62,299 nucleotides of DNA from an uncultured Clostridia bacterium. Lineage in GTDB: Bacteria > Bacillota > Clostridia > Christensenellales > Borkfalkiaceae. The notes beneath the pieces are model-generated. The model ran no database searches. It worked only from the letters and a program-made list of their open reading frames with translations, and was not told the DNA's origin. Location: assembly GCA_947587085.1 (NCBI GenBank), contig CANPXX010000001.1:1-62299 (forward strand), written 5' to 3'. Positions 11,062-35,391 of the stretch are shown one piece after another (the first letter of the stretch is position 1; each line of letters opens with the position of its first letter). The translations under genes were made by a program, and so were the position numbers.

Positions 11062-11095
11062 CACGAAAATTTCAAAAATATTTTCAAAAAGGGTA

Positions 11096-11124: not shown

Positions 11125-11210
11125 AGAGACGGTTATAATGTAAGATGGGGAATTTCGGTTGCCCCGTGCGGACGGAGGTCCGCAAATTTTTTCAAGGAGA
11201 GCGGGACGGT

Positions 11211-14265: not shown

Positions 14266-14280
14266 ATCGCTCCTATAAGA

Positions 14281-14310
14281 CCCGCTTGCTGTTCGGCAGG
14301 CGGGTTTTTT
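14281..14310 (+). terminator. Intrinsic terminator after the MreB-like gene
   Basis: Stem cccgcttgc/gcaggcggg followed by TTTTTT. Confidence 0.7.
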
Positions 14311-14386
14311 CGCGCGCGCAAACGCGCGCAAAACGGTTAAACAGAACGAATTATTGAAATACATACCCTCGATTTATCAAAATTGC

Positions 14387-14417
14387 TTGACGTGCAGGGG
14401 GGGGGTCATGGTACAAT
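14387..14417 (+). promoter_or_regulatory. Candidate promoter of the 17-kb operon (extended -10, G9 tract in the spacer)
   Basis: TTGACG (14387-14392), a 19-nt spacer containing G9, then TGgTACAAT (-10 at 14412-14417). Confidence 0.5.
14397..14405 (+). repeat. G9 homopolymer tract
   Basis: gcaGGGGGGGGGtcatgg read directly from the sequence. It lies between the putative -35 and -10. Confidence 0.95.
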
Positions 14418-14424
14418 GCTGTAT

Positions 14425-15129
14425 ATGAGTCTCTGGATCATCTGGTTCGTCATGGGCATATGCTTTGTGGCGGTATTCGCGGTCATGGTATTCCCCAAGC
14501 TCATGCTCCGCACCTATGCGGCGACGCTCCCCGTCCGCGACCGCACCGTCGGCAGGGAGACGGACGGGCACGGCGAAGTCCTCGTCTGCGAGCCCTCCGC
14601 CCTGTCGCGGCGGTACATCCGTTCGTACCGCGTGGGGCGGGACAAGGAGGGCATGTATTTCCGCGGCGAGCGGGCGAAGCGCGCCGCCTTTCTCGCGTAC
14701 GATCTCATCGTGTTCGGCGCCTCCAATACCATCTTGCAGATTCTGCACGTCAAAGAGAAGTTCAATTCCGACCCCTTCACCGAGACGGTGCGCCTTCCCA
14801 AGCGCACCGACCTTGTGATTCTGCGGGTGGTGTGCGCGGACGACACGCCCTTCCCGCCCGAGCGCCGTCCCTTCAACGCGCGCTATGCGCTTTGGCTCAC
14901 CCTGCTCTCGCTCAGTCTCGCCTTTACGGTGGACCTCTTTCTTTGGCTGTGCGTCACCTTCGCATGCCGCATCCTTGACCGTTTCACCATGACGGTCTCG
15001 CTGCCCCTCTCTTCGTGGGCGGCGCTTCTCGGGGTGACCGCCCTCGCCGTCGTCGCGGTCTGCTGGGCGGTCTCGCTCGCGCGCTTTTTCCTGTTGCGCG
15101 GAAGGGGGAAGGATGAAAACGGTCGCTAA
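14425..15129 (+). CDS. Hypothetical membrane protein (first gene of the operon)
   Basis: N-terminal TM SLWIIWFVMGICFVAVFAVMVF, a soluble middle region, and C-terminal TM helices. The start is chosen downstream of the putative -10; the ORF track starts at TTG 14383. Confidence 0.55.
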   Translation: MSLWIIWFVMGICFVAVFAVMVFPKLMLRTYAATLPVRDRTVGRETDGHGEVLVCEPSALSRRYIRSYRVGRDKEGMYFRGERAKRAAFLAYDLIVFGASNTILQILHVKEKFNSDPFTETVRLPKRTDLVILRVVCADDTPFPPERRPFNARYALWLTLLSLSLAFTVDLFLWLCVTFACRILDRFTMTVSLPLSSWAALLGVTALAVVAVCWAVSLARFFLLRGRGKDENGR

Positions 15130-15688
15130 ACGGTTACCCTATCCGGGCGGGTTCCCCGTCTATCTCTCGCGGTACGTCCTCTTTCCCGAGGGGTGTCGGG
15201 TCGCCCTGCGCTTTTTCAACGCGAGCGAGACGGAGTTCACGGGCGTGCGCTTTCTGCTCGTGGAGAAGGGGGCGGACGGAAGCGAGATCGCCTCGCGCAC
15301 GGTGGAGCGGCGGGGGCTGTCCGCCGAGCGCGGGCGGGAGTTCTCCCTGCCCGACGAGCCCGTGAGCGAGGGCTGCGCCGAAGTGGAGGCGCGGCTCATC
15401 GCCGCCCTCTCCGACGGCTACGAATATTGCGTGGAGGGGAGCGAAGTCATTCTCCGCTACGGGGAGGAGGCGCCCCCCGCCGAGCGGGAGATTTCCTTCA
15501 CCGAGCCCCCCTCCCATTCCGTCTCCAAGCGGTACAAATGGGTGGTCCTGTTCTCGCTGTGCGCGGTGCTCGGGCTCGCCCTCGTGGCGGCGGGATCTGC
15601 ATGGTTTTTCGGTATTTTCGATTCTCTCCTGCCGCAGCCCGACGGCGCGGCGGAGACGGGAACGGTCACGGAATATGTTGAAGCATAG
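15113..15688 (+). CDS. Hypothetical protein with C-terminal TM anchor
   Basis: 191 aa with a C-terminal TM (WVVLFSLCAVLGLALVAAGSAWFF). It overlaps the upstream gene by 17 nt and the downstream gene by 14 nt. Confidence 0.55.
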   Translation: MKTVAKRLPYPGGFPVYLSRYVLFPEGCRVALRFFNASETEFTGVRFLLVEKGADGSEIASRTVERRGLSAERGREFSLPDEPVSEGCAEVEARLIAALSDGYEYCVEGSEVILRYGEEAPPAEREISFTEPPSHSVSKRYKWVVLFSLCAVLGLALVAAGSAWFFGIFDSLLPQPDGAAETGTVTEYVEA

Positions 15689-18600
15689 CGATATCATCGA
15701 AAAACTCGATTCGCTGCAAAAGGTGGCGCTCGTCGCCTCGGCGTTGGAGGACGAAGCCCTCGAACAGGCGGGGGTGCCCCCCGTCGGGCGGGCGGAGCTT
15801 GGCGCGCTCGCCGCAAAGGAGGGGTGCTCCTACCGCAGTGCGGCGTGCTCGTGGAACGCCGCGCTCATCGAGGAAATGACGCGGGAGCTTGCCGCGGAAG
15901 CGGGCGCGGACGGGGCGCGTCTCTTCGTCACGCCCGATCTGAAAGCGGCGGCGGGACCGTACGCGGAGGGGCTCACCGAGGACGCGGAGCTCAACGGCAT
16001 GTACGGCGCCGCGATGGCGCGCGGCGTGCACGCCGCGGGCGGTGCGGTGGGGCTCGGTCGCCTCTCGCTCGGCGCCGCCGAACTTGCCTGTCTCGACCGC
16101 CGCGAGGATCTCCGCGCCGTCCACGAGCTGGCGGTAAAGCCCTTCCTGCTCGCCGCAAAGGAGGGGTGCGACGCGGTGTTCCTGACGCCGAGCCGCGCGG
16201 GGGAGGGATATCCCGACACCAACCGCGCCCTCTTTTCGGACGTCTTGGCGGGGCGGTTCGGAAACGCCTTCGCCGTCGGAGAGGGGACGGCGCCCACGTC
16301 CGAGGCGGTCTTTCTGTTGCAGGGGAGGGCGACCTTGGGCGGCGCGGCGCTCCCGCTCGAGCGGGCGGCGCGGCGGTACGAACAGCTCGCCGCCTTCCGC
16401 GGGGAGGGAAGCGTCTCGGAGCGGGACGTGGAGGACGCGCTCCGCGAGGGGAGCGCGCTCTCCCGCGAACGGTTGGACGAGGCGGCGGACGAAGTCGCCG
16501 ACTTCGCCATCCGCCTGTCAGAGCTCACGTTGGAGCCGCCCGCGGGCGACGCGGCGAGGCGGGCGGTCGCGGAGGAGAGCATCGTGCTCCTCAAAAACAA
16601 CTCCGTCCTTCCCCTCGCGCAGGGGACGAAGATCGCCGTCGTGGGGGAGGCGTATCCCGACCTTTCCCCCCTTGCCTCGCGGTTCGAGGTAGCGGGGACG
16701 GCGCGCGGCTATGACCGCGCGACCGATCGGAGCGACGCCCTCATCCCCGAGGCGATGCGCGCGGCGAACGGCGCGGACGTCGTGCTCGCCTTTCTCCGTC
16801 CCGACCCGAACGGGCGCTCGCTCGCCCTTCCCGCCAACCGTCTCGCCCTGCTCGGGGCGCTCGAAAAGGCGGGGAAGAGGGTGGTGACGGTCCTTCTCGG
16901 CGACCTCGCGGCGGACATGCGCTTCGACCGCGATGCGGCGGCGTCGCTGTATGCGCCCGAGGGCGGGAAATATGCCGCCGAAGCGCTCGCGCGCGTGCTC
17001 GCGGGAGAGGTCTCCCCCTCGGGCAAGCTGGCGCGCACTCTGTACGACGGCGCGGACGAGCGGGTCCGCGCGCTGAGAGAGGAGCGCGATTCGGGGCTCA
17101 CCCGCGTGGGCGGGTTCACGGGCTATCTCCGCTACGATACGGCGGGGGAGACGGTGCGCTATCCCTTCGGGTACGGGCTCTCCTATACGAAATTCGTCTA
17201 TTCCTCCCTCTCGGTGGAGGGGGATACGGTGTCCTTTACGGTGAGAAACGCGGGCAAGCACGACGGCGCAGAGGTCGCCGAGGTGTATATCGGCGAGCCC
17301 GGCAAGTCGCACGTGGCGCCCTCCAAGCGGTTCAAAGCCGCCGCGAAGGTGTTCCTGCGCGCGGGGGAGAGCAAGAGGGTCTCCCTCACCCTCCCGCCCG
17401 AGCGGTATGCCACTTTCGACCGCCGCACCTTCGCGGAGAACGTGGAGGGGGGAACGTACCGCATCTTTGTGGGCGCCTCCTCGCAGGACATCCGTCTGCG
17501 CGGCAAGCGGACGCTCGCGGGCGTCGAACGGGAACGGGAGAAGGAGACGGCGGCGGACTACTTCCCGGGCGGAGACCGCGGCGACGTCGCCGAAGTGGGG
17601 CGGGAGAGCCGCCTTGCGAAGGAGGACGGGCGCGAACGGGTGCCGCGGCGCCTGCGCATCGCGCGGCGGACGGCGCTTTGCCTCCTCCCCGCCGTCTTGC
17701 TCCTCTTCTTTCTGATCGTCACCATGCTCATCTTTTCCTATGCGCTCGACTATGTCCTCCTCTTCACGGTGGACGAACAGGCGGCGGCGTGGGCGCTCTA
17801 TATCCTCGCGTCGGCGGTCGTCGCCTTCGTGCCGCTCTTCGGCTCGCTCAGCCGCAGGCGGATGGTGCGGATCAAAAAGGTCTGCATGACGGCGTGCCCC
17901 ATCCTCCTCCTTGCCGATCTCTTCCTCGGGCACTTCCTCGGAACGGACGGGACGGGGGCGGTCGAAGCCGTGTTTACGGCGGTCACCTGTCTCGCCGTGG
18001 GGACGGTGCTCGCCCTCCTTCTCGGCTTCGTGCTCGAACGCGAGCTCGTGCGCACGGAGAGCGGGGCGAACCGCTGGGCGCGCTTCTATTTCGAACCCGA
18101 AAAGCAGGAGACGACGACGCCCGATACGCAGTTCGAGGAGGCGTTCCGCGCGGCGGACGAGGCGCGCGCCAAAACAAAGGGCAAGCAGGAGGAGCCTCGC
18201 GCGCCCATCGCCGAGGTCCCCCAATTTTACGATCGGCATCTCACCTTCGAGGTGCTCTTCCGCGACTGCAAGCGGTTCGCGGCGGAGCGCGGCGTGCTCT
18301 TCGAGGACGGGGACCTTCGCGACCTCCTCGCCGCGTTCACGGCTTCCCGCCTCATCATCGTGCCTTCGGGCGGCGCCGTGAAGGGGTGCTCCGCCGTCGC
18401 GGAATATCTCGGCGGCAAGCCCTATGTGGACAATGCCGAACAATACATGCGGTGCGACGACCTCTTCTCGGAGTGGCGGAGCGGGGAGCGGCTCTATCTT
18501 CCCACCGCCCTGAGCGAGGCGTTCGCCGAGGCGGGGAGAAAGAGCGCCGTCCTCCATACGGCGATCATCCGCCATGCCGACGTCAACCGCCTCGCCGAGG

Positions 18601-19172
18601 TGTTCGGTCCCGTCGCGGAGGTGCTTTCCCGCAGGCGGACCGCGATTCCCTCGCAGGAGGGCGATCGGCTCCTGCCGCCCAACCTGCAATTGGTGGTGGA
18701 GCTGGACTCCGACGGGACGGACATCCCCGAGAAGATCGCGGAGGTCGCGGCGGTGCTGTCGCCGCAGTGCAAGGAGGGCGCGCCCGCGCAGAGAAAGACG
18801 GTGGTGCACGCGGTCGGCTTCGAGCGCTTCTCGGCGCTCCGCAACGCCGTGCGCGACGAATTCCCCGTCGGCGAGGCGCTGTGGAAGGACGTGGACCGTC
18901 TCGACGCGCAGTGCCGCGCGGCGCACATCGGCAACCTCGCGTGGGTGAGGCTGGAACTGCACGCCTCCGCCGTCATCGCCTGCGGCGGAAAGGAGCGGGA
19001 GGCGCTGGACGGCGCCCTCGCCGCGGAGCTCGTCCCGTGGCTGAACGCGACGTGGGACGACGAGGCGGGCGGGCTTTTTGAGACGTTGCGGGAGATCTTC
19101 GGGAGAGATTTCGCCCGCGCGGCGCAGGCGGCGAAGAGGGCGGCTACGAAAGAGAAGGGGGCGCGCGGATGA
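15675..19172 (+). CDS. Fusion protein: GH3-like domains + Fn3-like domain + four TM helices + degenerate McrB-like AAA+ domain
   Basis: GH3 hallmarks are IVLLKNNSVLPL..KIAVVGE, SPSGKLARTLY and RYPFGYGLSYTKF. There is no N-terminal signal peptide. Four hydrophobic helices fall at roughly aa 660-790. The C-terminal 330 aa are collinear with the two downstream GTPases but lack the Walker motifs. Confidence 0.8.
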   Translation: MLKHSDIIEKLDSLQKVALVASALEDEALEQAGVPPVGRAELGALAAKEGCSYRSAACSWNAALIEEMTRELAAEAGADGARLFVTPDLKAAAGPYAEGLTEDAELNGMYGAAMARGVHAAGGAVGLGRLSLGAAELACLDRREDLRAVHELAVKPFLLAAKEGCDAVFLTPSRAGEGYPDTNRALFSDVLAGRFGNAFAVGEGTAPTSEAVFLLQGRATLGGAALPLERAARRYEQLAAFRGEGSVSERDVEDALREGSALSRERLDEAADEVADFAIRLSELTLEPPAGDAARRAVAEESIVLLKNNSVLPLAQGTKIAVVGEAYPDLSPLASRFEVAGTARGYDRATDRSDALIPEAMRAANGADVVLAFLRPDPNGRSLALPANRLALLGALEKAGKRVVTVLLGDLAADMRFDRDAAASLYAPEGGKYAAEALARVLAGEVSPSGKLARTLYDGADERVRALREERDSGLTRVGGFTGYLRYDTAGETVRYPFGYGLSYTKFVYSSLSVEGDTVSFTVRNAGKHDGAEVAEVYIGEPGKSHVAPSKRFKAAAKVFLRAGESKRVSLTLPPERYATFDRRTFAENVEGGTYRIFVGASSQDIRLRGKRTLAGVEREREKETAADYFPGGDRGDVAEVGRESRLAKEDGRERVPRRLRIARRTALCLLPAVLLLFFLIVTMLIFSYALDYVLLFTVDEQAAAWALYILASAVVAFVPLFGSLSRRRMVRIKKVCMTACPILLLADLFLGHFLGTDGTGAVEAVFTAVTCLAVGTVLALLLGFVLERELVRTESGANRWARFYFEPEKQETTTPDTQFEEAFRAADEARAKTKGKQEEPRAPIAEVPQFYDRHLTFEVLFRDCKRFAAERGVLFEDGDLRDLLAAFTASRLIIVPSGGAVKGCSAVAEYLGGKPYVDNAEQYMRCDDLFSEWRSGERLYLPTALSEAFAEAGRKSAVLHTAIIRHADVNRLAEVFGPVAEVLSRRRTAIPSQEGDRLLPPNLQLVVELDSDGTDIPEKIAEVAAVLSPQCKEGAPAQRKTVVHAVGFERFSALRNAVRDEFPVGEALWKDVDRLDAQCRAAHIGNLAWVRLELHASAVIACGGKEREALDGALAAELVPWLNATWDDEAGGLFETLREIFGRDFARAAQAAKRAATKEKGARG

Positions 19173-20443
19173 ATCTTCTCATCGATATGCAGACCATCTG
19201 GGATACGCTCACCTCTCCCGTCTTTGTCATCGTCTACATCGTGGCGGTGGCGCTCCTCATGCTCGCCATCGTCATCTCGGTCATGGTCAACGAGCACCGC
19301 TTCACCGCCTTCGGCGACCGCCTCGGCAAGAGCGCGGAGATGGCGGAGCGCGGGGAGGAGCGCAGCGGTTCGCGCTTCGATATGCTGAAAAAATTGGACG
19401 GGGAGAAGAAAACGCGGCAGGAGACCGCGTTCGAGGACATCTCCTTGAAGGAGCTGTGCGAGAGCTTCCGCAGCTTTTCGGCGGGGAAGCTCGGGCTGTA
19501 CTATTCCATCGACGTCATCCGCGAGTTCATCGCGGGGCTCGCCGTTTCGCACATCATCATCCTGCAGGGCATGTCGGGCACGGGCAAGACGTCGCTCGCC
19601 TACGCCTTCGGGGAATTCCTCGGCAATCCCTCCACCGTCATTCCCGTCCAGCCCATGTGGAAGGAGCGGAGCGACCTCCTCGGCTATTACAACGAATTCA
19701 CCAAGCGGTTCAACGAGACCCTTCTTCTGCAAAAGATCTACGAGGCGAACGGGCGCGGGGACATCTTCATCACCATCCTCGACGAGATGAATATCGCCCG
19801 CGTGGAGTACTACTTCGCGGAGTTTTTGTCCCTGCTCGAAATTCCAAACCCCGAGGCGCGCTACCTCGAAGTGGTGTCCGACCGATGGGCGGACGACCCC
19901 GAGGAGCTCAAAAACGGGCGGGTGAAACTGCCCGAGAACATGTGGTTCTTGGGGACGGCGAACAACGACGACAGCACCTTCGCCATCTCGGACAAGGTGT
20001 ACGACCGCGCCATGATTCTGAACATGGACCAGCGGTGCGAGCCCTTCGAGGCGAAGGCGTACCGCTCCGTGCCCGTCGCCGCCGCCCGCTTCGAGCGCCT
20101 TGCGGCGGAGGCGGTCAAAGAGATCGGGGTGTCCTTGGAGACGCTTGACAAGCTCAAAAAGGTGGACGCCTATCTCGCGGAGACCTATCAGATCTCCTTC
20201 GGGAACCGCATCCTGCGGCAGATCGTCACCTATCTGCCCGTCTACGTCGCCTGCGGCGGGGATGAGATCGACGCTCTCGACGACATCCTCGCGAAGAAGG
20301 TGCTCAGAAAACTCGAAACGCAGAACATGACCTACCGTGCCTCCGACATGGAGGCGCTGTGCGAGGTCCTCAACGAACTGTTCGGCGCGGAGCGCATGGC
20401 GCGCTGTCTCAAAACGGTGCGGCGCATCGCGCGGAACGGATAG
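19169..20443 (+). CDS. Membrane-anchored McrB-family AAA+ GTPase (paralogue 1)
   Basis: N-terminal TM VFVIVYIVAVALLMLAIVISVMV, Walker A GMSGTGKTS, Walker B ILDEMNIARVEYYFAEFLSLLE, and McrB-type LGTANNDDSTFAISDKVYDRA (NxxD). The ATG overlaps the upstream stop (ATGA). Confidence 0.8.
   Translation: MNLLIDMQTIWDTLTSPVFVIVYIVAVALLMLAIVISVMVNEHRFTAFGDRLGKSAEMAERGEERSGSRFDMLKKLDGEKKTRQETAFEDISLKELCESFRSFSAGKLGLYYSIDVIREFIAGLAVSHIIILQGMSGTGKTSLAYAFGEFLGNPSTVIPVQPMWKERSDLLGYYNEFTKRFNETLLLQKIYEANGRGDIFITILDEMNIARVEYYFAEFLSLLEIPNPEARYLEVVSDRWADDPEELKNGRVKLPENMWFLGTANNDDSTFAISDKVYDRAMILNMDQRCEPFEAKAYRSVPVAAARFERLAAEAVKEIGVSLETLDKLKKVDAYLAETYQISFGNRILRQIVTYLPVYVACGGDEIDALDDILAKKVLRKLETQNMTYRASDMEALCEVLNELFGAERMARCLKTVRRIARNG
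19550..20016 (+). repeat. About 467-bp near-identical tract shared with 22823-23289
   Basis: By eye, roughly nine-tenths nucleotide identity across the AAA+ core of the two GTPase genes. The flanking gene parts are much more diverged. Confidence 0.8.
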
Positions 20444-20454
20444 GGGAAGGGCGC

Positions 20455-23716: not shown

Positions 23717-23725
23717 GGAGGGACT

Positions 23726-26125
23726 ATGAGACGTTCGAAACCGCTCTATCTCTTCGGAATGATCATCGTGATGAGCCTCATCTTTCTCGGTGGGGTCTGT
23801 TTTGCCGCGGGCTACGGGAGATTCGGGCTCTTGCGGGGGGAGGAAGTCGAGGATCCCAACACGCTGTGGGAGGACATCGTCGAGAACTTCGATTGGAACG
23901 ACTTCCCGTGGGACGACTTCCCCTTCGAGGAGTACGACGACTTCCCTTGGAGCGAGCTCCCTTGGGACGACATGCCCGCCGACTTCGATTGGAACAAGCT
24001 CCCGTGGGAGACGTTGCCCGACGACTTCCCTTGGGACAATCTTCCCTTCGACGATCCGCCCGCTGACTTCCCGTGGGACGATCTCCCGTGGGATTCCCTC
24101 CCCGAGGACTTCCCCATCGACGACGTGCCGTGGGGCGACATCCCCATCGAGGATATGCCTTGGGAGAACCTGCCCGAAGATTTCCCGTGGGGGGATATTC
24201 CCCTCGGCGACGCGGAGGAGTTCCCGTGGGAGAACATTCCGTGGACCGACCTTCCCGAGGACTTCCCGTGGGAGGACGTCCCTTGGGAGAGCGCACCCGA
24301 CGATTTCCCTTGGAACGACGTGCCTTGGGAGGATGTCCCGATGGAGACGCTTCCCGAGGACTTCCCGTGGGAAAATCTTCCTTGGAATGACTTGCCCGAC
24401 GACTTCCCTTGGAACGATGTGCCGTGGGAGGACGTCCCTATGGAGACGTTGCCCGAGGACTTCCCTTGGGAAAACCTGCCGTGGAACGACTTACCAGAAG
24501 AATTCCCTTGGGAAGATGTCCCGTGGGAGGATGTCCCGATGGAGACGCTCCCCGAGGATTTCCCTTGGGAAAATCTTCCTTGGAACGATTTACCCGACGA
24601 TTTCCCTTGGAACGACGTCCCTTGGGAGGACGTGCCGATGGACACCCTCCCCGAGGACTTCCCTTGGGAAAACCTGCCTTGGAACGATTTACCCGAAGAA
24701 TTCCCGTGGGAAGATGTCCCTTGGGAGGACGTCCCGCTCGATACGCTTCCCGAGGACTTCCCGTGGGAGAATCTTCCTTGGAACGACTTGCCCGAAGAAT
24801 TCCCGTGGGAAGATGTCCCTTGGGAGGACGTCCCGCTCGACACCCTCCCCGAGGATTTCCCGTGGGAAAACCTGCCGTGGAATGACTTGCCCGAAGAATT
24901 CCCTTGGAACGACGTGCCTTGGTCGGATGTCCCGATGGAGACGCTCCCCGAGGATTTCCCGTGGGAGAATCTTCCTTGGAATGAGCTTCCCGACGACTTC
25001 CCTTGGAACGATGTGCCTTGGTCGGACGTCCCGCTCGACACCCTCCCCGAGGATTTCCCGTGGGAAAACCTGCCTTGGAACGATTTACCCGACGACTTCC
25101 CTTGGAACGATGTGCCTTGGTCGGATGTTCCGCTCGATACGCTGCCCGAGGACTTCCCTTGGGAAAAGTTGCCGTGGAACGATCTCCCCGAGGACTTCCC
25201 GTGGGATCAGGTCCCGTGGGCAGACCTGCCGTGGGAGGAGATGCCGCTCGACTTCCCGTGGGATAAAGTTCCTTGGAACGACCTCCCCGACGACTTCCCT
25301 TGGCAGAAACTGCCGTGGCCGCTCTTGGCGGCGGGCGGCTTGTTGCTCGGGCTGGGGCTGCCGTGGGATAAGATCCCGCAGGACGCCATCCCCGAAGGCA
25401 TATTCCCCGAGGGCTTCTCGCCGTGGTGCCAACATGTCTTTACCGAATGGCGGGAGGAGCCCCCGCCCACCTGCGGCGCACCGGGCGTCAGACAAGAGCA
25501 CTGCGTGCTCTGCGGCGAGGTGGTCGGAAGGGAGGACATCCCCGCGACGGGCGCGCACGTCTATGGAGAGGACGGCGTCTGCACGGGGTGCGGACGGAGG
25601 AAGGTGTGCTTTGTGAGCGCCTCCAAAGAGACGGAATACGGCGGCGCGCTTCGGTGCGAAAACGAGGACATCTCGCTCGTGCGGGAGACGGGCTTCGCCG
25701 CGCTCGCGGAGGGGCACTCCTTCGAGGGGATAGATTTTGCCTCGCACAACACCATCGGCGAATGCCCCAACGTCTTTCACGTCCGCATCAAAGACGCGGC
25801 GGGGAACGACGTGACGGATACATACGAAGTGGAGTACCGCTACGGGACTCTCACGCTCACCGCGCGGAGGCTCGTCCTCGTCACGGAGAGCCATGCGTTC
25901 TCCCTCTCCGAATTCACGGGCGAGCCCCTCAAATGGGAGAAGTATTCTTTCGGAGACGGCACGTCGCTCGCCGAGGGCGACCGCATCGTGCTCACCTTCG
26001 AGAGCATCTCGCGCCCGGGCAGAAAGGAAAACATAGCTACTTACCGCATCGAGAATGCGGACGGGGAGGACGTGACGGGGAATTATGCCGTGACCTCCCA
26101 ATGGGGAGAGCTGACGCTCAAATAG
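23726..26125 (+). CDS. DFPW acidic Trp/Pro repeat protein with N-terminal TM anchor, Cys-rich segment and MBG-like C-terminal domains
   Basis: 799 aa with strong RBS GAGGAGGG. The TM is LYLFGMIIVMSLIFLGGVCFAAG. About 480 aa of (F/L/V)PW(E/N/D)D-type units follow. Then comes CGAPGVRQEHCVLCG...CTGCG, and it ends with ...VTGNYAVTSQWGELTLK. Confidence 0.85.
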   Translation: MRRSKPLYLFGMIIVMSLIFLGGVCFAAGYGRFGLLRGEEVEDPNTLWEDIVENFDWNDFPWDDFPFEEYDDFPWSELPWDDMPADFDWNKLPWETLPDDFPWDNLPFDDPPADFPWDDLPWDSLPEDFPIDDVPWGDIPIEDMPWENLPEDFPWGDIPLGDAEEFPWENIPWTDLPEDFPWEDVPWESAPDDFPWNDVPWEDVPMETLPEDFPWENLPWNDLPDDFPWNDVPWEDVPMETLPEDFPWENLPWNDLPEEFPWEDVPWEDVPMETLPEDFPWENLPWNDLPDDFPWNDVPWEDVPMDTLPEDFPWENLPWNDLPEEFPWEDVPWEDVPLDTLPEDFPWENLPWNDLPEEFPWEDVPWEDVPLDTLPEDFPWENLPWNDLPEEFPWNDVPWSDVPMETLPEDFPWENLPWNELPDDFPWNDVPWSDVPLDTLPEDFPWENLPWNDLPDDFPWNDVPWSDVPLDTLPEDFPWEKLPWNDLPEDFPWDQVPWADLPWEEMPLDFPWDKVPWNDLPDDFPWQKLPWPLLAAGGLLLGLGLPWDKIPQDAIPEGIFPEGFSPWCQHVFTEWREEPPPTCGAPGVRQEHCVLCGEVVGREDIPATGAHVYGEDGVCTGCGRRKVCFVSASKETEYGGALRCENEDISLVRETGFAALAEGHSFEGIDFASHNTIGECPNVFHVRIKDAAGNDVTDTYEVEYRYGTLTLTARRLVLVTESHAFSLSEFTGEPLKWEKYSFGDGTSLAEGDRIVLTFESISRPGRKENIATYRIENADGEDVTGNYAVTSQWGELTLK
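24341..25231 (+). repeat. In-frame 99-bp (33-aa) tandem repeat, about 9 units
   Basis: The unit is (M/L)(E/D)TLPEDFPWENLPWNDLP(D/E)(D/E)FPW(N/E)DVPW(E/S)DVP. Consecutive units are highly similar at the DNA level. Confidence 0.9.
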
Positions 26126-26137
26126 GACGGAGGGAAC

Positions 26138-29100
26138 ATGCTCTATCGGTCGTACCAAGAGAGGCTTGCAAAGCTGGCGCGCGCGTTCGAGCGCGTCTGG
26201 CGGTTCCGTCTGCTCTTTTTGGCGGGCTTTGCGCTTCTGCTTGCGGCGGCGGCGACCCTTCTCGGCGTCACGGGGACGGTGTACGGCGAAGAGTTCGCCT
26301 CGGAGGTGGTGTACGGGCAGTCCCTCTCCCCCTCGGCATCGGCGCTCTTTCGCACGGCGTCCTTCGAATACCGTGCGGCGGGCGGCGAATGGACGGAGGA
26401 GGAGCCCCGTCTCGTGGGCGAATACGAGGTCCGCGCCGTCGGAAAGTCGGTGGCGGGCACGCGGTACGCGGGGGAGGCGCATTCCTATCGGATCGTGCCC
26501 CGCGAAACGGAGGTGCGCGCCGCGGCGAGCTCGCTCGTCTATGGGGATGAGCTCGCCTTCTCTGCCTCTCTGTGCTATGGCGATACCCTCACCGTCTCCT
26601 CCTATTCCGCCCGTCCGCTCGGCGGGCGGCTCTTCGTCACGCCCGACGGGGAGAGCATCTCCGCAAGGAGCGAGAGCGGGGAGGACGTCTCTTCCTGCTA
26701 TCTGTTCGTGCCCGTGGAGCGCACGATCGAGGATGTCCCCCGCCCCGTCGTCTTTGAGACGCCCACCCTCACCTTCGGGTACGACGGCAACGTCCACACG
26801 GGCGGCACGGTGGAGGTAGCGGAGGGGAACCTCCTTTCGGGGCACACCGTCGAGGCGGTCATGCCCTCCCTCACTTCGGTAGGGTCTGTCCCCAACAGCG
26901 TGCGCGAACTGCACATCTATGACGAGGCGGGCGAGGAGGTCACCGAGCACTATTCGATCGCCTTTCGGGCGGTGGGAACGCTCACGGTGACGCCGCGCGC
27001 CCTCTCGGTCACGACGCGCTCGGACTCCTTCGTCTATGACGGGACGGCGCATCGGTACGAGGACTTTTCCGTCGCGGAGGGGTCGCTTGCGGAGGGCGAA
27101 ACGCTTCGCCGCCTCTCGGCAGTCTCCCCGACGGAGGCGGGCGAATATCCGAACTACTCCTCCTTCGCCGTCTATGCGGACGGGGAGGACGTCACATCCA
27201 ACTATGCGCTCACCGCCTCGTTCGGGACGGTGACGGTGGAAAAGCGCATCCTTTCGGTCACAACGCGCTCGGACTCCTTCGTCTATGACGGAACGGCGCA
27301 TCGGTATGAGGACGGCGCCGTCTCGGATGGGTCCCTCGCGGAGGGGCAGGAGCTTCGTCGCCTCTCGGCGATCTTCCCGACGGAGGCGGGCGAGTATCGG
27401 AACTATTCCTCCTTCGCCGTCTATGCGGACGGGAAGGAGGTCACATCCAACTATGTCCTCTCCCTCTTCTTCGGGACGGTCACGGTGGAGAGGATACGGC
27501 TTACGGTGGAAGCCATGTCCGACTCCTTCTTATACGACGGGGCATACCATGTCTATGATACGCCATCGAGCGTGACGCGGCATGAAAAGGACGGGACGTA
27601 CCATGTCTACCGTTCGTTTGAGGACGCCGAGGGCATGCTCGCCCGCGGGCAGACGCTCGTCCTCTCGGCGGTCCGCGTCAGGGACAGGGGCGTCCATCCC
27701 AATGCGCCCTCCGCCGCCGTTTATGCGGGGGAGACGGACGTGTCGGCGAACTATGAAATAGAGCTGCGGGCGGGGGAGCTTACGGTCACGCCCCGCCCCG
27801 TCTCCCTCCTCAGCGCTTCGCTAAAAGGCATCGTCTATGACGGCGCGCCGCACGCCGCCGAGGGATACGAGGAGGAAAACCTCGTCGCGGGGCACCGCGT
27901 GGAGGCGACCTACCGTACGTTCACGGAGGCGGGCACGCACACAAATGATTTCGAGAAAGACCCCGTCATCTTGGACGGGGCGGGGAACGACGTCACTTCC
28001 AATTATGAAATTGATTGGAAGTTCGGCACGGTGACGATCGATCGGCGCCCCGTTACGCTCGTCTCGGACAGCGAGCGGTTCGTCTATGACGGTATACCTC
28101 ACGCCGTCAGAAATTATTCTCATATGGGCGAATACGACCTCGTCAAAGGGCATTTCGTCTCTCCCGAATATCCGAGCTATACGGAGGCGGGGGAGCATCC
28201 GAACGAGTTCTCCACGCCGCTCGACGTGTACGACGGCGAGCGCAACGTCTCTTCCGATTATGAAATACAATGGCAGTTCGGCACGGTGACGATCGACCCT
28301 CGCCCCATCGCCTTTGTCACGGGCACGAAGGAGGACTTCGTCTACAACGGGGCGGCGAACGTTTGGCATACGGTCGGGCTCGCCGCGGGCTACACGCTCG
28401 CCGCGGGGGAGAGCTTCGCGGTGACGGTGACGAAGGACGTCTCGGTCACAGGCGTGTGCAAAGGGGTGAGGAACGAGCTCGAATTCGAGTGGAGGGTGTA
28501 CCGCGACGGACGGGAGACCACCTCCAATTACGCGCAGGACGAAACGGAGTACGGCACGCTCGGCGTCCTGCCCCGCCCCGTCGTCCTCACTTCCTCCTCC
28601 GTTACCGTCGTCTATGACGCCGCTGCGCACGCCGCCGCAGGATACGAGGAGGACAACCTCGTCGCGGGGCACCGCGTGGAGGCGGACTATCGTACGTTCA
28701 CGGAGGCGGGCACGCACACCAACGACTTTGAAAAGGAGCCCTCCATCTTGGACGGGGGCGGGAACGACGTCACCGCGAATTATGATATCACATGGGAATA
28801 CGGTAAAGTGGTCATCCAACGGAGGAAGGCGACCGTCGAGACGGGCTCGGGGAATACGATGTACGACGGAACGTCGCACACCTTCGGGGAATTTTCCGTC
28901 TCCGTCGAGGGCGGCGCGCTCGAGGGGCACACCTTCGAGCCCGTCTTTCACGTTTTCAAGGATGTCTGCGAGCAGCCGAATAAGCCCGACGCCATCACTG
29001 TGCGAGGCGGAGAAGCCGACGTCACCGCGAATTACGATATAACTTGGCAATGCGGTACGGTGACGATCGCGCCCCGTCCCGTCACGGTGACCGCGCCGAG

Positions 29101-31468
29101 CGAGACGCGGATGTACGACGGAAAGGCGTACCCCGCGGGGGGAGAGTCCACGGTCTCCTATCCCGAGGGCGGGCTCGGGCACGACGTCTCTCCCGAGTAT
29201 CGCGTGACGCCTGAGATGGCGAACGTGGGGGAGCACGAGAACGAAATCCAAAGCGTCCGCATTACGGCGGAGGGTGAGGACGTCACGGGCAACTATCAAA
29301 TTACGACCGTCTCTGGGACGCTCACCGTTACCGCCCGCCCCGTCTCCCTCCTCAGCGCTTCGCTAAAAGGCATCATCTATGACGGCGAACCGCACGCCGC
29401 CGAGGGATATACGGATACGGGAATGGACCCCGTCACGGGGGAAACCGTGCAAAAGCTCGTCGAGGGGCACCGCGTGGAGGCGACCTACCGTACGTTCACC
29501 GAGGCGGGCACGCACACAAATGATTTCGAAAGAGACCCCGTCATCTTGGACGGGACGGGGAACGACGTCACTTCCAATTATGAAATCGATTGGAAGTTCG
29601 GCACGGTGTCGATCGATCGGCGCCCCGTTACGCTCGTCTCGGACAGCGAGCGGTTCGTCTATGACGGCGCGCCGCACGATGTCCGCAGGTATTTCCATAC
29701 GGGCGAATACGACCTCGTCGAAGGGCATTTCGTCTCTCCCGAATATCCGAGCTTCACGGAGGCGGGGGAGCATCCGAACGAGTTCCCCACGCCGCTCGAC
29801 GTGTATGACGGCGAGCGAAACGTCTCTTCCAATTATGAAATACAATGGCAGTTCGGCACGGTGACGATCGACCCTCGCCCCGTCGTCCTCCTCAGCGATT
29901 CGCTGGAAGGCATCGTCTATGACGGCATTGCGCACGCCGCCGCGGGGTATGAAGATACGGGAATGGACCCCGTCACGGGGGAAGCCGTGCAAAAGCTCGT
30001 CGATGGGCACTATGTGGAGGCGACCTATCCCTCCTTCACCGACGTGAAAGAGGGGTACGACAAGGTGGACAAGGCGACGCAGGCGTACGAGAATGTCCCG
30101 ACGAATGTCGTCGTGCGCGACAAGGAGGGGAACGACGTCACAAGGAACTATCAGGTCGAATGGCAATACGGCACGGTGACGATCGACCCCCGTCCCCTCC
30201 ATGTCGAAACCCTTTCGGGCGAGTGGGTCTACGACGGAAAGCCGCATACGATGCCGGAATACGTCGTAACGGAAGAGGACCTCGTCGCGGGGCAGACCTT
30301 TCACAAAGGGGAGGTCACAGACGCTCCGTCGATCGCCTTTTTCACGCAAAGCGGTAAGGAGAACAAATTTGGGATCGAGTTCCGCATTCGGAACGAGCGG
30401 GACGCGGAGATTCCCGCACGGAACTATGAACTCATCTGGACGTACGGCACGCTCACCATAGAACAGCGCCCCATTAAAGTTACCTCGCAATCGTACACAT
30501 GGGTGTATGACGGAACAGCCCACAGACCGGCGACGGAGGGAGAATGGACGTTGGAGATGGCTTCGGAGACGACGGCTGACCGAGGGTTCTTGGGCAAAAA
30601 GGAGCGTGCTCGCCTGTCCTATCAATCTTTCACCGATATCACCGACATTTGGAACGCGGCGAAACGCGAATACGAAGTGGGGACCGTCGAAAACGAATTG
30701 ACTGTACTTCTCTATGATGACGACTATGGTGGCTCGCTCACCGGTCCTAAGGATACAGCCTCAAACTATCTCTTTGAATGCGAATGGGGAAAGATCCGCA
30801 TCAAATCGCCCATCGTCGTGGACCTCTTCGCCATCGAAGCGGAGTACGACGGCAAGGAGCACGCCCTCCGCGCGGACGACTACTTCATCGCGCGCAAGCC
30901 GCCCGAGGTGAAGAGCGAGTGGATCCGCGTCGAACTCAACGTTGAACACAACGAGAAGCTCATTTCGGTGGGCGGGCTCACCGCGACGGAAGTGTCGGGC
31001 GCGTCCGTCTGTTCGGTATGGGACGGGGAGAACGACCTCACGGGCGAAAACCGCTTCGTATTCGTCTGCTCGGGCGGGCTGGGCTGCGCGGGCGGCGAAG
31101 GGTGCAATGGAGCGCACTGCAAGGGATGCGAGGAGAAGTGCGTCTCCCTCGGGGGCTGGGAGGGCTGTCCCAATTGCTACGCGCTCAAAATCAGTCCGCG
31201 CCGCATCACCCTCCGTACGGCTTCCATCAAGCGCGTCAAGGGGAGCGAACCGCTCCTCGGGTCAGATCCTGCGAATCGGTGGTGGATCTCGTACGGCAAT
31301 CTGGTCGAGGGACACGAGATCCGTTGCACGTTCACGGGAAGATTGGAGCTCGACGAAGAGAGAGCTTTGAACACGGCGGAGTTCTCCGTCTGGAACGGCG
31401 AGGAGGACGTCACGGCTTGTTATGAGGTGACGACGATTTTGGGCGAGCTCGCATGGTACGGAGGATAG
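26138..31468 (+). CDS. Giant membrane-anchored MBG-domain repeat protein
   Basis: 1776 aa with N-terminal TM FRLLFLAGFALLLAAAATLLGV. More than 15 units match the MBG pattern (...LTVTPRP(V/L)...FVYDG.AH......G..L..GH........EAG.H.N........G.DVT.NY.I....GT(V/L)TI). There is a Cys-rich segment near the C-terminus (CSGGLGCAGGEGCNGAHCKGCEEKC...CPNC). Confidence 0.85.
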   Translation: MLYRSYQERLAKLARAFERVWRFRLLFLAGFALLLAAAATLLGVTGTVYGEEFASEVVYGQSLSPSASALFRTASFEYRAAGGEWTEEEPRLVGEYEVRAVGKSVAGTRYAGEAHSYRIVPRETEVRAAASSLVYGDELAFSASLCYGDTLTVSSYSARPLGGRLFVTPDGESISARSESGEDVSSCYLFVPVERTIEDVPRPVVFETPTLTFGYDGNVHTGGTVEVAEGNLLSGHTVEAVMPSLTSVGSVPNSVRELHIYDEAGEEVTEHYSIAFRAVGTLTVTPRALSVTTRSDSFVYDGTAHRYEDFSVAEGSLAEGETLRRLSAVSPTEAGEYPNYSSFAVYADGEDVTSNYALTASFGTVTVEKRILSVTTRSDSFVYDGTAHRYEDGAVSDGSLAEGQELRRLSAIFPTEAGEYRNYSSFAVYADGKEVTSNYVLSLFFGTVTVERIRLTVEAMSDSFLYDGAYHVYDTPSSVTRHEKDGTYHVYRSFEDAEGMLARGQTLVLSAVRVRDRGVHPNAPSAAVYAGETDVSANYEIELRAGELTVTPRPVSLLSASLKGIVYDGAPHAAEGYEEENLVAGHRVEATYRTFTEAGTHTNDFEKDPVILDGAGNDVTSNYEIDWKFGTVTIDRRPVTLVSDSERFVYDGIPHAVRNYSHMGEYDLVKGHFVSPEYPSYTEAGEHPNEFSTPLDVYDGERNVSSDYEIQWQFGTVTIDPRPIAFVTGTKEDFVYNGAANVWHTVGLAAGYTLAAGESFAVTVTKDVSVTGVCKGVRNELEFEWRVYRDGRETTSNYAQDETEYGTLGVLPRPVVLTSSSVTVVYDAAAHAAAGYEEDNLVAGHRVEADYRTFTEAGTHTNDFEKEPSILDGGGNDVTANYDITWEYGKVVIQRRKATVETGSGNTMYDGTSHTFGEFSVSVEGGALEGHTFEPVFHVFKDVCEQPNKPDAITVRGGEADVTANYDITWQCGTVTIAPRPVTVTAPSETRMYDGKAYPAGGESTVSYPEGGLGHDVSPEYRVTPEMANVGEHENEIQSVRITAEGEDVTGNYQITTVSGTLTVTARPVSLLSASLKGIIYDGEPHAAEGYTDTGMDPVTGETVQKLVEGHRVEATYRTFTEAGTHTNDFERDPVILDGTGNDVTSNYEIDWKFGTVSIDRRPVTLVSDSERFVYDGAPHDVRRYFHTGEYDLVEGHFVSPEYPSFTEAGEHPNEFPTPLDVYDGERNVSSNYEIQWQFGTVTIDPRPVVLLSDSLEGIVYDGIAHAAAGYEDTGMDPVTGEAVQKLVDGHYVEATYPSFTDVKEGYDKVDKATQAYENVPTNVVVRDKEGNDVTRNYQVEWQYGTVTIDPRPLHVETLSGEWVYDGKPHTMPEYVVTEEDLVAGQTFHKGEVTDAPSIAFFTQSGKENKFGIEFRIRNERDAEIPARNYELIWTYGTLTIEQRPIKVTSQSYTWVYDGTAHRPATEGEWTLEMASETTADRGFLGKKERARLSYQSFTDITDIWNAAKREYEVGTVENELTVLLYDDDYGGSLTGPKDTASNYLFECEWGKIRIKSPIVVDLFAIEAEYDGKEHALRADDYFIARKPPEVKSEWIRVELNVEHNEKLISVGGLTATEVSGASVCSVWDGENDLTGENRFVFVCSGGLGCAGGEGCNGAHCKGCEEKCVSLGGWEGCPNCYALKISPRRITLRTASIKRVKGSEPLLGSDPANRWWISYGNLVEGHEIRCTFTGRLELDEERALNTAEFSVWNGEEDVTACYEVTTILGELAWYGG
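27001..27498 (+). repeat. Tandem 249-bp (83-aa) duplication inside the giant gene
   Basis: LSVTTRSDSFVYDGTAHRYED...FGTVTVE(K/R)RI occurs twice in tandem with high DNA identity. Confidence 0.85.
27788..28306 (+). repeat. About 520-bp dispersed direct repeat, copy 1 (partner 29333-29881)
   Basis: Near-identical DNA encoding PRPVSLLSASLKGI(V/I)YDG...QWQFGTVTIDPRP. The copies differ by one roughly 30-nt indel. Confidence 0.85.
29333..29881 (+). repeat. About 550-bp dispersed direct repeat, copy 2
   Basis: See 27788-28306. A shorter related segment lies at about 28560-28800. Confidence 0.85.
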
Positions 31469-31490
31469 AGGGAATTTTGAAAGTTACCAT

Positions 31491-31519
31491 GCGGCGGGCG
31501 AATTGGTCTCGCCCGCCGC
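31491..31519. terminator. Hairpin between convergent genes (probable operon terminator)
   Basis: Perfect 11-bp GC stem gcggcgggcga/tcgcccgccgc with a 7-nt loop. The U-tract is weak on both strands. Confidence 0.5.
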
Positions 31520-31530
31520 TTATCGGTCGG

Positions 31531-32292
31531 TCAGTATGCCGTCGTGAGGGTGCTCACCGTGAGGGCGAGCAGTTTGTTGTGCCGCCGTGCGGCGGAGAGC
31601 ACGGCGGGGGTCACCCGCTCTCCCGCGAGGGCGATGGGCTCGCCGTTCGCGCCGTACACGCTCCGCTTCACCCTCCGTCCGAGGAGGTTGGTCCTGTCGA
31701 GGAAGCGGATGGCGTTGGGCTCTTTTTGCATGGGCGCATTCTCGGGCATGGGTGTATCCTCGGGCATGGGCGCTTTCTCGGACATGGTAGGCGGCTCGGC
31801 GGGCTCTTGGGCGGGCATGGGCGCCTTTTGCGGCGCGGACACGGTCCGCTTTTTTGTACCCCGCTTCGCGGTGCGGGCGGCGGCCTCGCGGGAGGCGGGG
31901 TCGGGATAGACGACGACGGTCGCCCCCGCCTGCATGAGCGGGACGGGCACGGCGGTCTTGGCGCCGTCCTTGGAGACGATGAGCTCAGGCGCGTCCTGCA
32001 AGAAGAGCTCGCTCGCCGTGCCGAGGTATTCCCCCGTGTGGGCGTAGACGGCGCTCCCGAGGGGATTGGGCACGCCGACGGGGGAGGCGAGGCGGGCGCG
32101 TCCCGCCACGACGGCGTCCGCGAACGAGAGCACGGCGCGCGCGGGGAGGCAGAATTCCTCCTCCTCTTCGTCCGTGCAGAGGAGGCAGGAGAGCTTGCGA
32201 TAGTCGCGGGTGAGGCGGGCGTCCGTCACATAGCCGCACCGCTCGCCCGACGGGGTGATGACGGGGCTTCCGATGATGTTGGAAAGTTGCAT
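31531..32292 (-). CDS. PRC-barrel-like domain protein with Pro/Met-rich linker
   Basis: 254 aa starting at MQLSNIIGSPVITPSGERCGYVTD, with RBS AGAGAGG. The linker reads KAPMPAQEPAEPP..KAPMPEDTPMPENAPM. The C-terminal part is LLGRRVKRSVYGANGEPIALAGERVT. The upstream part of the 431-aa track ORF is implausible low-complexity basic sequence. Confidence 0.6.
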   Translation of the reverse strand: MQLSNIIGSPVITPSGERCGYVTDARLTRDYRKLSCLLCTDEEEEEFCLPARAVLSFADAVVAGRARLASPVGVPNPLGSAVYAHTGEYLGTASELFLQDAPELIVSKDGAKTAVPVPLMQAGATVVVYPDPASREAAARTAKRGTKKRTVSAPQKAPMPAQEPAEPPTMSEKAPMPEDTPMPENAPMQKEPNAIRFLDRTNLLGRRVKRSVYGANGEPIALAGERVTPAVLSAARRHNKLLALTVSTLTTAY

Positions 32293-32391: not shown

Positions 32392-32420
32392 TTGACAAAT
32401 GCGGACGGGAATGGTATCAT
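32392..32420 (+). promoter_or_regulatory. SigmaA-type promoter for comEC-holA
   Basis: TTGACA, a 17-nt spacer, then TATCAT. This places the first usable start at ATG 32444, preceded by GGAGA. Confidence 0.65.
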
Positions 32421-32443
32421 TTTCCAAAGCATGGAGAAATGAG

Positions 32444-35370: not shown

Positions 35371-35391
35371 CGCAAAATAAGGGGAAAAGGT

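Follow-up and report, generated by a model that had tools for sequence, protein, structure and literature searches.

Membrane-tethered McrB-like GTPases and giant surface proteins encoded in one conserved operon of Clostridia

GTPases of the McrBC type are seen as motors that drive the restriction of nucleic acids. In the canonical system of Escherichia coli (PDB IDs: 6hz4, 6ut6 and 7vsr), McrB joins an AAA+ GTPase core to a DNA-reading N-terminal domain, and McrC joins an N-terminal (DUF2357) part to a PD-(D/E)xK nuclease. Here we analyse a stretch of 62,299 nucleotides (the window) from an uncultured Clostridia bacterium of the family Borkfalkiaceae (GenBank assembly GCA_947587085.1, contig CANPXX010000001.1), which contains an operon of eight open reading frames (ORF1 to ORF8). 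This operon and its relatives in other genomes, here called the cassette, share the GTPase core and the McrC N-terminal partner with canonical McrBC. They have neither the DNA-reading domain nor the nuclease, and they differ further in being tethered to the membrane, in carrying three McrB-like modules where canonical McrBC has one, and in being coupled to surface proteins. We propose, as a reading with about an even chance of being right, that the cassette encodes a GTP-driven membrane complex of a nuclease-less McrBC type, serving the adhesin-like surface proteins encoded with it.

The closest described systems are found in the NxD branch of McrB GTPases, which is defined by the signature N-x-D-[D/E] and takes in the CoCoNuT and CoCoPALM systems (Bell et al. 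2024, eLife 13:RP94800, PMC11090510). CoCoNuT GTPases are soluble and carry long N-terminal coiled coils. Where the McrC nuclease of a CoCoNuT is missing, an adjacent nuclease (HEPN or other) always compensates for it (Bell et al. 2024, PMC11090510). CoCoPALM is presented in the same paper as a large clade in which an NxD-type McrB GTPase is fused to an FtsB-homologous module of transmembrane (TM) helix and coiled coil. It is further characterised there by coiled-coil McrC homologues, by genes of the signal-peptidase family (pilus assembly) and by a link to the assembly of surface structures. The account occupies one paragraph and a description is deferred; we found nothing beyond it and no follow-up paper. 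Our comparison with CoCoPALM uses this published description and no CoCoPALM sequences.

The cassette resembles CoCoNuTs in the N-x-D-[D/E] signature and in an McrC homologue that has a coiled coil and has lost the PD-(D/E)xK nuclease. The GTPase of a CoCoNuT-like locus on a Deinococcus plasmid, which is adjoined by a DUF2357 protein, is about 38% identical to the cassette GTPases over the GTPase domain. Unlike the soluble CoCoNuT enzymes, the cassette GTPases have TM helices in place of coiled coils, and two defining features of CoCoNuTs, the coiled coil on the GTPase and the associated nuclease, are missing. The soluble relatives found on plasmids, by contrast, have retained a nuclease, and they adjoin an integrase or type I R fragments. 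These plasmid relatives were considered as true CoCoPALM systems and rejected: the ones inspected are CoCoNuT-like pairs, and the scanned flanking genes include no signal-peptidase family.

With CoCoPALM the cassette has in common an NxD GTPase with TM helices, a coiled coil on the McrC homologue, the disappearance of the nuclease logic, a proposed link to the assembly of a surface structure and the size of the clade. Present here and not mentioned for CoCoPALM are a dead McrB/4-TM/dead glycosidase protein, two small membrane proteins and giant proteins with YDG/MBG-like repeats. The cassette may be identical with the CoCoPALM clade or sister to it. The first-pass annotation of this DNA, made from the letters of the sequence, had called the operon a candidate undescribed system. 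This holds for the gene set, which is described nowhere in the literature searched, but the CoCoPALM clade had already been named (Bell et al. 2024, PMC11090510). What is new is thus the gene set within the NxD-branch McrBC-like systems, and it is anticipated only by the CoCoPALM paragraph of that paper.

GTPase modules and their McrC-like partner

The two GTPase genes of the operon, ORF4 and ORF6, both match the Pfam family AAA_5. Their best NCBIfam match is McrB (PRK11331), though it lies far under the cut-off of that model. When the sequences of the PDB were searched with phmmer, the three top matches were McrB chains (1.7e-5 to 3.7e-5), ranking above midasin. The alignment of ORF6 with E. 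coli McrB (6hz4, 1.7e-5) runs without gaps through Walker A (GMSGTGKTS against GPPGVGKT), Walker B (LDEMN against IDEIN) and the signature motif (GTANNDDS against LMNTADRS). Together with the adjoining DUF2357 partner, the top PDB and NCBIfam matches place the AAA+ genes inside the McrB clade, where they had first been put. The motifs GMSGTGKTS, LDEMN and GTANNDDS are invariant in a set of 13 and in 61 GTPase homologues; ORF4 and ORF6 should therefore be active GTPases.

The signature of ORF4 and ORF6 reads N-N-D-D, with N323, D325 and D326 invariant, and aligns without a gap with the N-H-D-E of an 800-aa, coiled-coil-fused GTPase from a Deinococcus plasmid. This is consistent with membership in the NxD branch but does not prove it, because N-N-D-D can formally also be read as NxxD. 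Among defence profiles, PDC-M26A of PADLOC is matched by ORF4 (2e-48) and ORF6 (3e-51). Only the central GTPase part of this 724-position profile is covered, and no other PDC-M26 component in PADLOC matches any of the eight ORFs or the homologues of ORF5. PDC-M26 is itself a candidate defence system, of which the literature searched makes no mention.

At the N-termini of the GTPases no DNA-binding specificity domain was found in any locus; the position is taken by one or two TM helices and a short charged linker. The distance from the TM helices to the GTPase domain is only about 60-100 aa, and the GTPases themselves contain almost no coiled coil. The two genes are not equivalent in their anchors: the order of 1-TM GTPase, McrC-like protein and 2-TM GTPase recurs in about 45 loci. 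The gene located 5' of the McrC-like gene encodes one TM helix in essentially all loci, and the gene located 3' encodes two or more hydrophobic segments in almost every locus.

ORF5 (610 aa), the gene located between the two GTPase genes, is the McrC-like member of the set. It matches DUF2357 with E = 0.0014, under the Pfam gathering score. The same family is matched by 12 of 28 ORF5 homologues derived from the loci (best 5.6e-7), and dozens of database homologues have a precomputed PF09823 match. The ORF5 family comprises 298 clusters (50% identity) at E <= 1e-30. AlphaFold2 (AF2) models reached a mean predicted local distance difference test score (pLDDT) of 76 for the full length and 79 for the N-terminal domain, which is compact and alpha/beta. 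The most conserved segment of the family, aa 73-126 (ERQFIRS.GEV.PIEKVKHVS...), is the place where the invariant residues cluster and has pLDDT below 50. It may represent a putative pore-inserting finger, disordered in the model of the monomer. The C-terminal half forms a coiled coil of about 170 residues, about 25 nm long, followed by about 50 aa.

We conclude that ORF5 contains no nuclease domain, since there is no space for it, no conserved catalytic triad and no family match: beside the coiled coil and the tail no room is left in the C-terminal half, and no D...(D/E)xK pattern is conserved among the invariant residues of the homologue alignment. A search of the PDB with the ORF5 family profile returned coiled-coil proteins only, and C-terminal matches in Pfam and PADLOC were likewise of coiled-coil type. 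An inactivated PD-(D/E)xK fold was considered and dismissed as too weak, as it was represented by a few SPARDA/DREN chains only (E about 0.5-3, template-modelling score below 0.1). Profiles and AF2 secondary structure thus agree with the initial description of ORF5 as an McrC/DUF2357-like protein with a coiled coil in the place of the nuclease. The wider claim that the operon encodes no nuclease, methyltransferase or DNA-binding domain also stood: Pfam, NCBIfam and PADLOC scans of the eight proteins gave none, nor any other nucleic-acid-binding domain.

The third McrB-like module lies in ORF3, which had been annotated as a GH3-like/4-TM/pseudo-McrB fusion; phmmer, hydropathy and hhalign recovered each of these parts. 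Residues 54-612 align end to end with BglB (7ms2), a member of glycoside hydrolase family 3 (GH3), with phmmer E = 7.7e-43. Pfam reports GH3_C and Fn3-like domains on ORF3, and additionally PF00933 on its homologue in locus L085. Three catalytic features are missing: GEG stands where the nucleophile motif SDW is expected, the KH substrate motif has disappeared, and a deletion has removed the acid/base segment. Among 44 ORF3 homologues the nucleophile column holds E, D, K, Q, R or C, and the acid/base segment differs between sequences or is missing, whereas the structural SEDP motif is conserved. Judged from these columns, the GH3 domain is catalytically dead. ORF3 has no signal peptide and its TM block is flanked by basic residues, and the GH3 domain is therefore taken as a cytoplasmic pseudo-glycosidase. 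A weak MFS_1 match on the TM block was under the cut-off and was treated as an artefact of hydrophobicity.

The C-terminal part of ORF3 (about 310 residues) matches the ORF6 family with 99.7% in hhalign (E = 2.1e-26, 315 columns). Neither its Walker A (PSGGAV-KGC) nor its Walker B (IRHAD) is conserved. By its motifs the operon is thus predicted to encode three McrB-like modules tethered to the membrane, of which two are live and the third is dead. Four related loci (L020, L024, L029 and L037) have no pseudo-GH3/pseudo-McrB gene; directly upstream of their first GTPase gene stands a gene for a protein of about 280 aa (for example L020:6465-7307), which is conserved and matches no known family.

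Surface proteins and conservation of the gene set

The last two genes of the operon encode giant surface proteins. ORF7 contains an acidic region with 58 xPW motifs, in which 150 D/E residues stand against 4 K/R in 495 aa and which is 30% Asp/Glu, 20% Pro and 12% Trp. With a hidden Markov model built from the repeats, two 87-aa YDG/MBG-like domains were located in ORF7 (aa 623-714 and 712-799). ORF8 has about 16 tandem domains of about 87 aa (aa 97-1557) and a final one at aa 1686-1774, with the pattern xPRPV...YDG..H...NY.I...GTLT. The 87-aa repeat is common to both proteins. ORF8 had been described as an MBG-repeat protein, and its tandem repeats are evident. The outright assignment to MBG did not stand: the Pfam scan of whole ORF7 and ORF8 gave no MBG match, and when single repeats were compared with Pfam, one of twelve matched weakly (YDG 1.5e-5, MBG_2 0.003, MBG 0.03). 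A faint MBG_2 match is recorded on one homologue.

At its N-terminus ORF8 bears a distinct module (26138-26275), composed of a 25-aa basic tail MLYxxYxxK..K.A....RFR, a TM helix and then ..YGE... This module is recognisable in 52 loci, including metagenome-assembled genomes (MAGs) labelled Anaeroplasma. The tail motif is found on one protein per locus, the last giant protein of the cassette. It recalls specialised signals for export or sorting, such as KxYKxGKxW of accessory-Sec substrates. The idea that the tail is exceptionally conserved was dropped, as its mean pairwise identity is 35%, against 29-38% over the remainder of the N-terminal 400 aa; what holds is the motif and its restriction to this protein. 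Other lineages have genes for BspA-type leucine-rich repeat (LRR_5) proteins upstream (L043:5-2998, L053:1414-4572, L055:38-2236, L050:7326-8534 and L085:477-5195). Transglutaminase-core (PF01841) domains occur in proteins at the ORF7/ORF8 position in L084:13236-15137 and L085:13298-21839.

When one genome per GTDB species was scanned, a relative turned up in at least 583 genomes. Among the matches listed, the closest come from uncultured Clostridia MAGs of rabbit gut, with ORF6 identity of 61-73%. By their labels the carriers include Christensenellales-type bacteria (Gallimonas, Borkfalkia, Christensenella), Oscillospiraceae, Lachnospiraceae and Anaerovoracaceae, further MAGs labelled Anaeroplasma or Bacilli, and a cultured isolate from mouse gut, Anaerocaecibacter muris CLA-AA-M11 (L043). 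GTPase identity across orders is 50-80%. Across lineages the surface cargo varies and the GTPase core is constant.

Gene content was counted in detail in 43 species-representative loci with adequate flanks. An ORF8-type protein with the N-terminal tail-plus-TM module is encoded directly downstream in all 43. The McrC-like gene is present in 40 of them, the pseudo-GH3/pseudo-McrB gene in 38 and two GTPase genes in 37; the full core in the same order occurs in 33. Wherever at least 3 kb of downstream sequence was available, ORF8-type repeats followed right after the GTPase genes (55/55 loci). Independent gene calls with precomputed Pfam matches agree with this gene content. The expectation of the first-pass annotation that the gene set is co-conserved in related genomes was thus confirmed by the neighbourhood search. 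Apart from the core, the only genes recurring among 138 ORFs that neighbour the cassette in about 70 loci are ORF1-like (32 loci), ORF2-like (18), the 280-aa family (4) and LRR_5 (4). Signal peptidase, sortase, integrase, restriction-modification and defence genes do not recur among these 138 ORFs. None of 72,556 plasmids carries the McrC-like gene, and a phage collection gave two weak matches to the GTPase domain only. A comparison of the flank genes of the window with 77 loci for synteny returned nothing, which is uninformative, as the cassette takes up nearly all of the 10-kb flanks there.

The two GTPase domains of a locus are 100% identical in protein sequence in at least 19 loci from among the more distant ones. 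They include L030, L036, L041-L043, L046, L048, L051 and L055, and further L063, L065, L068-L071, L074 and L079. At the DNA level these pairs are direct repeats of 1.1-1.2 kb with 98.5-100% identity, 3.0-3.8 kb apart (for example L055:6324-7519 and 10137-11332), and only the TM N-termini of the proteins differ. The repeats of the cultured isolate L043 have 16 differences in 1,097 nt, every one synonymous, which argues against an assembly artefact. The identity of the pairs points to gene conversion (concerted evolution) together with selection for identical subunits. Identical paralogues are what one would expect of equivalent positions within one ring. The lineage of the window has diverged copies, which share 65% protein identity; their best 300-nt stretch retains 87% identity (19520-19819 and 22793-23092).

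In three flank-complete loci (L023, L061 and L076) the McrC-like gene is missing, and a single GTPase gene is followed directly by the surface-protein genes. The same single-GTPase layout is seen in L031, L040 and L072, where a contig end is close by. Such loci could be products of recombination between the identical repeats, possibly as an on/off switch, and could equally be collapsed short-read assemblies.

Proposed function and its alternatives

The solved E. coli McrBC complex is a hexameric ring with McrC as a stalk in its pore, and our proposal of a ring and stalk follows from it. The three AAA+ modules would assemble into one ring or into two paired ones, with the N-terminal face turned to the inner side of the membrane. 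The ORF5 finger would enter the pore and stimulate GTP hydrolysis, by analogy with McrC in E. coli McrBC, and the ORF5 coiled coil would dimerise or project into the cytoplasm as a stalk of about 25 nm. A conformational change driven by GTP would be passed to the TM helices and from them to the surface proteins or to their conserved tail on the cytoplasmic side, MLYxxYxxK...RFR in ORF8. The output would be insertion, anchoring, turnover, or mechanical or conformational control of the adhesin-like proteins, not restriction of DNA or RNA. The dead GH3 domain might act as a scaffold or as a sensor of a ligand.

Several known systems resemble this scheme in their possible working mode. Zorya ZorAB is a membrane motor, NTP- or ion-driven, with a long cytoplasmic coiled-coil tail. 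Accessory Sec systems handle giant adhesins with a special N-terminal motif (KxYKxGKxW) and contain inert pseudo-glycoenzymes, the Asp proteins. Gliding of Mycoplasma mobile involves giant surface proteins anchored by TM helices and a ring-shaped ATPase in the cytoplasm that has a central stalk. None of the three has sequence homology to the cassette, and the resemblance implies no membership in their families. A more specific variant of the proposal, which we consider a long shot, is that the cassette encodes a McrBC-derived transmembrane motor, in which a hetero-oligomeric McrB ring with a McrC stalk resembling a gamma subunit moves or tensions surface "legs" or adhesins. If so, it would serve gliding, adhesion dynamics or conveyance of surface proteins, analogous to the F1-like motor of M. 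mobile and independent of it. Anaeroplasma is a wall-less genus, and the presence of the cassette in MAGs labelled Anaeroplasma would fit a function that needs no cell wall.

A role in serving the surface proteins is favoured because no effector was found, anchoring is family-wide, the ORF8-type linkage holds in 55 of 55 loci and the genomic context is of housekeeping type. There are also points that speak against it. The whole argument comes from sequence comparison and models, and Foldseek searches of the PDB with both AF2 models of ORF5 gave nothing below E = 0.08 and did not recover the McrC fold, so that the McrC assignment is carried by sequence profiles and gene adjacency. The nearest relatives of the GTPases belong to defence (McrBC, CoCoNuT-like loci and PDC-M26A of PADLOC). 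No secretion, sortase, glycosyltransferase or peptidase component is recognisable in the operon. The chromosomal position of the cassette differs among relatives, and some mobility or rearrangement must therefore have occurred. Surface repeat proteins that evolve fast would also fit an arms race over phage receptors. Defence or abortive infection is accordingly a possibility we take seriously, although we hold it to be clearly the less probable function. Phage would then be sensed at the envelope, by way of the surface proteins or of a disturbance of the membrane, the signal would be relayed by the GTPase ring and the coiled coil in a concept like that of ZorAB, and ORF1 and ORF2 would bring about arrest or membrane damage. 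All NxD McrBC systems have been put in a defence framework (Bell et al. 2024, PMC11090510), and the closest annotated relatives are plasmid pairs of a coiled-coil McrB and a DUF2357 protein, one of them beside an integrase and a PD-(D/E)xK McrC. The PDC-M26A matches of ORF4 and ORF6 (1e-48 to 1e-51) and the variable chromosomal location point the same way, as does a likeness of the coiled coils of ORF5 homologues to ZorA, JetC and LmuB, which is compositional only. Set against this, the eight proteins include no nuclease, HEPN, protease, NADase or other effector, although nuclease-less CoCoNuTs always compensate for their loss, and no second PDC-M26 component. The surroundings are made up of housekeeping genes and contain neither defence islands nor mobile elements, and the high conservation of the GTPases across orders and in so many species genomes is in our judgement atypical of patchy defence genes. 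Moreover, surface adhesin-like proteins of 600-2,700 aa are invariably present, and we know of no defence system in which such proteins are invariant components. The data lean to the surface-protein option over defence.

That the cassette is simply the CoCoPALM system, with ORF7 and ORF8 as its fibre or pilus-like substrates, appears to us rather unlikely. It would agree with the NxD-[D/E] signature aligning with N-H-D-E, with the N-terminal TM helices and the long coiled coil of the McrC-like protein, and with a large clade in Bacillota linked to surface structures. On the other side, two features of CoCoPALM were not detected here: no DivIC/FtsB Pfam family recurs on 61 GTPase homologues (E <= 0.1, among the top 25 of 81 families), and no signal-peptidase family is encoded in the operon, occurs in the window proteins or recurs among the 138 neighbouring genes of about 70 loci. 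CoCoPALM GTPases also carry a coiled coil, which in the cassette GTPases is almost nil. Finally, the McrBC-like genes and the surface-protein genes could be unrelated units that merely share one operon, and strong ribosome-binding sites (RBSs) of their own in front of ORF7 and ORF8 would suit such an arrangement. We find this hardly credible, as all 55 loci keep adjacency and order, in different orders of Clostridia and in Anaeroplasma-labelled MAGs, with unrelated flanks, and in the window the gaps are 9-12 nt with no notable terminator-like structure between ORF6, ORF7 and ORF8.

If the cassette does serve surface proteins, it would show a motor-activator pair of McrBC type re-used at the membrane in a nuclease-free form. 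Hundreds of gut Clostridia species carry it, and it thus probably helps abundant commensals in the making or control of their surface. Its two active modules and one dead would form a naturally heteromeric McrB ring, and its dead glycosidase domain, employed as a cytoplasmic module, is an unusual recruitment of a pseudoenzyme. If defence were the true function instead, the cassette would represent a type that lacks a nuclease, is coupled to the envelope and has no counterpart among described systems.

Operon layout, small membrane proteins and genomic setting

All eight ORFs lie on the + strand, with neighbours overlapping or at most 12 nt apart, and ORF1 to ORF8 span 14416/14425-31468 (Table 1). 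Successive junctions are overlaps of 17, 14 and 4 nt, a gap of 11 nt, an overlap of 20 nt and gaps of 9 and 12 nt. When the coordinates were re-read, the eight ORFs and the junctions listed by the first-pass annotation were found as given, and hydropathy placed TM helices where it had put them (three in ORF1, one in ORF2, four in ORF3, one in ORF4, two in ORF6 and one each in ORF7 and ORF8). The open frame of ORF1 is 14383-15129 (+), and its true start is likely ATG 14416 or 14425. The open frame of ORF5 is 20359-22287 (+); its true start is ATG 20455, preceded by the RBS GGGGAAGGG. Seven of the eight ORFs are in the table of GC content by codon position, with 0.79-0.88 at the third and 0.39-0.49 at the second position, and the flanking housekeeping genes behave alike; ORF4 is not in this table solely owing to an overlap filter. 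The GC content of the window is 61-70%.

Table 1. Coordinates of the operon, its parts and adjoining features in the window
Feature	Position	Strand	Description or basis
MreB/Mbl gene	13048-14265	+	MreB_Mbl; directly upstream of the operon
Intrinsic terminator of the upstream mreB-like gene	14277-14314	+	14-bp stem, then U6; z = -2.8; left operon boundary
Candidate promoter	14387-14417	+	TTGACG (14387-14392), 19-nt spacer, TGnTACAAT (-10 at 14412-14417); read off the sequence
ORF1, 3-TM membrane protein	14416-15129	+	Predicted cytoplasmic domain of ~135 aa between TM1 and TM2 (hydropathy)
ORF2, tail-anchored protein	15113-15688	+	140-aa N-terminal domain, C-terminal TM helix
ORF3, whole fusion gene	15675-19172	+	
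ORF3, GH3 beta-glucosidase-like part	15675-17534	+	N domain, GH3_C, Fn3-like; phmmer, Pfam
ORF3, four TM helices	17667-18044	+	Hydropathy peaks aa 668, 704, 733, 769; block aa 668-787
ORF3, degenerate McrB-like AAA+ domain	18228-19151	+	hhalign, tblastn cross-matches to the GTPase genes
ORF4, McrB-like GTPase	19169-20443	+	424 aa; TM helix aa 18-36; GTPase domain ~aa 93-424
ORF5, McrC N-terminal (DUF2357)-like domain	20455-21474	+	N-terminal part; profile matches, gene adjacency
ORF5, coiled coil	21487-22143	+	C-terminal part; AF2 helix aa 345-511, then 523-563; short conserved tail
ORF6, McrB-like GTPase	22268-23716	+	482 aa; TM helices aa 23-41, 69-87; GTPase domain ~aa 150-482
ORF7, surface protein	23726-26125	+	N-terminal signal/anchor, xPW region aa 40-545, Cys cluster aa 568-628, 2 repeats
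ORF8, surface protein	26138-31468	+	1776 aa; basic tail and TM helix (aa 1-46), ~16 repeats, Cys cluster, last domain
GC-rich hairpin	31491-31519		11-bp stem; z = -2.6; right boundary, between ORF8 and the convergent PRC-barrel gene
PRC-barrel gene	31531-32292	-	Convergent with ORF8

ORF1 and ORF2 have no match in Pfam, NCBIfam or PADLOC and no family even at E <= 10. A search for homologues of ORF1 returned 5 proteins, and in the related loci ORF1-like genes lie upstream of the cassette. Locus L050 encodes an ORF1-like membrane module fused to a BspA-type LRR. A SipA-like signal-peptidase identity of ORF1 was rejected, as S26 motifs are missing and the positive-inside rule puts the soluble domain in the cytoplasm.

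Both hairpins that had been proposed to bound the block were recovered (Table 1), and the downstream one is probably a bidirectional terminator. The candidate promoter is plausible as the promoter of the operon on the basis of its motifs. A consensus promoter scan picked another site, TTGAAA-18-CAAAAT at 14354-14383 with 9/12 matches, and missed the candidate because its 19-nt spacer is long. The -10 TACAAT overlaps the first in-frame ATG and ends 7 nt ahead of ATG 14425; if this promoter is used, the ORF1 mRNA would therefore be leaderless or almost so.

The flanks of the window are of housekeeping type (MreB, Ppx, ComEC, HolA, CdaA), and those of other loci contain purA, metK, truB and others. 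ComEC, HolA (DNA polymerase III delta) and a DAC-domain (CdaA-like) gene lie beyond the PRC-barrel gene, within 32399-36295. In a relative whose ORF6 is 70% identical (L003/L004), no mreB-like gene occupies this position. The tRNA scan of the window found no tRNA genes. On the - strand, 4 kb upstream of the operon (6503-10222), there is an ORF of 1239 aa with proper codon bias and no Pfam match. Its product, another large and uncharacterised envelope protein, combines a lipoprotein-like signal (…LTLGVFAAC) with a TM helix at the C-terminus and a basic tail rich in Pro and Ala.

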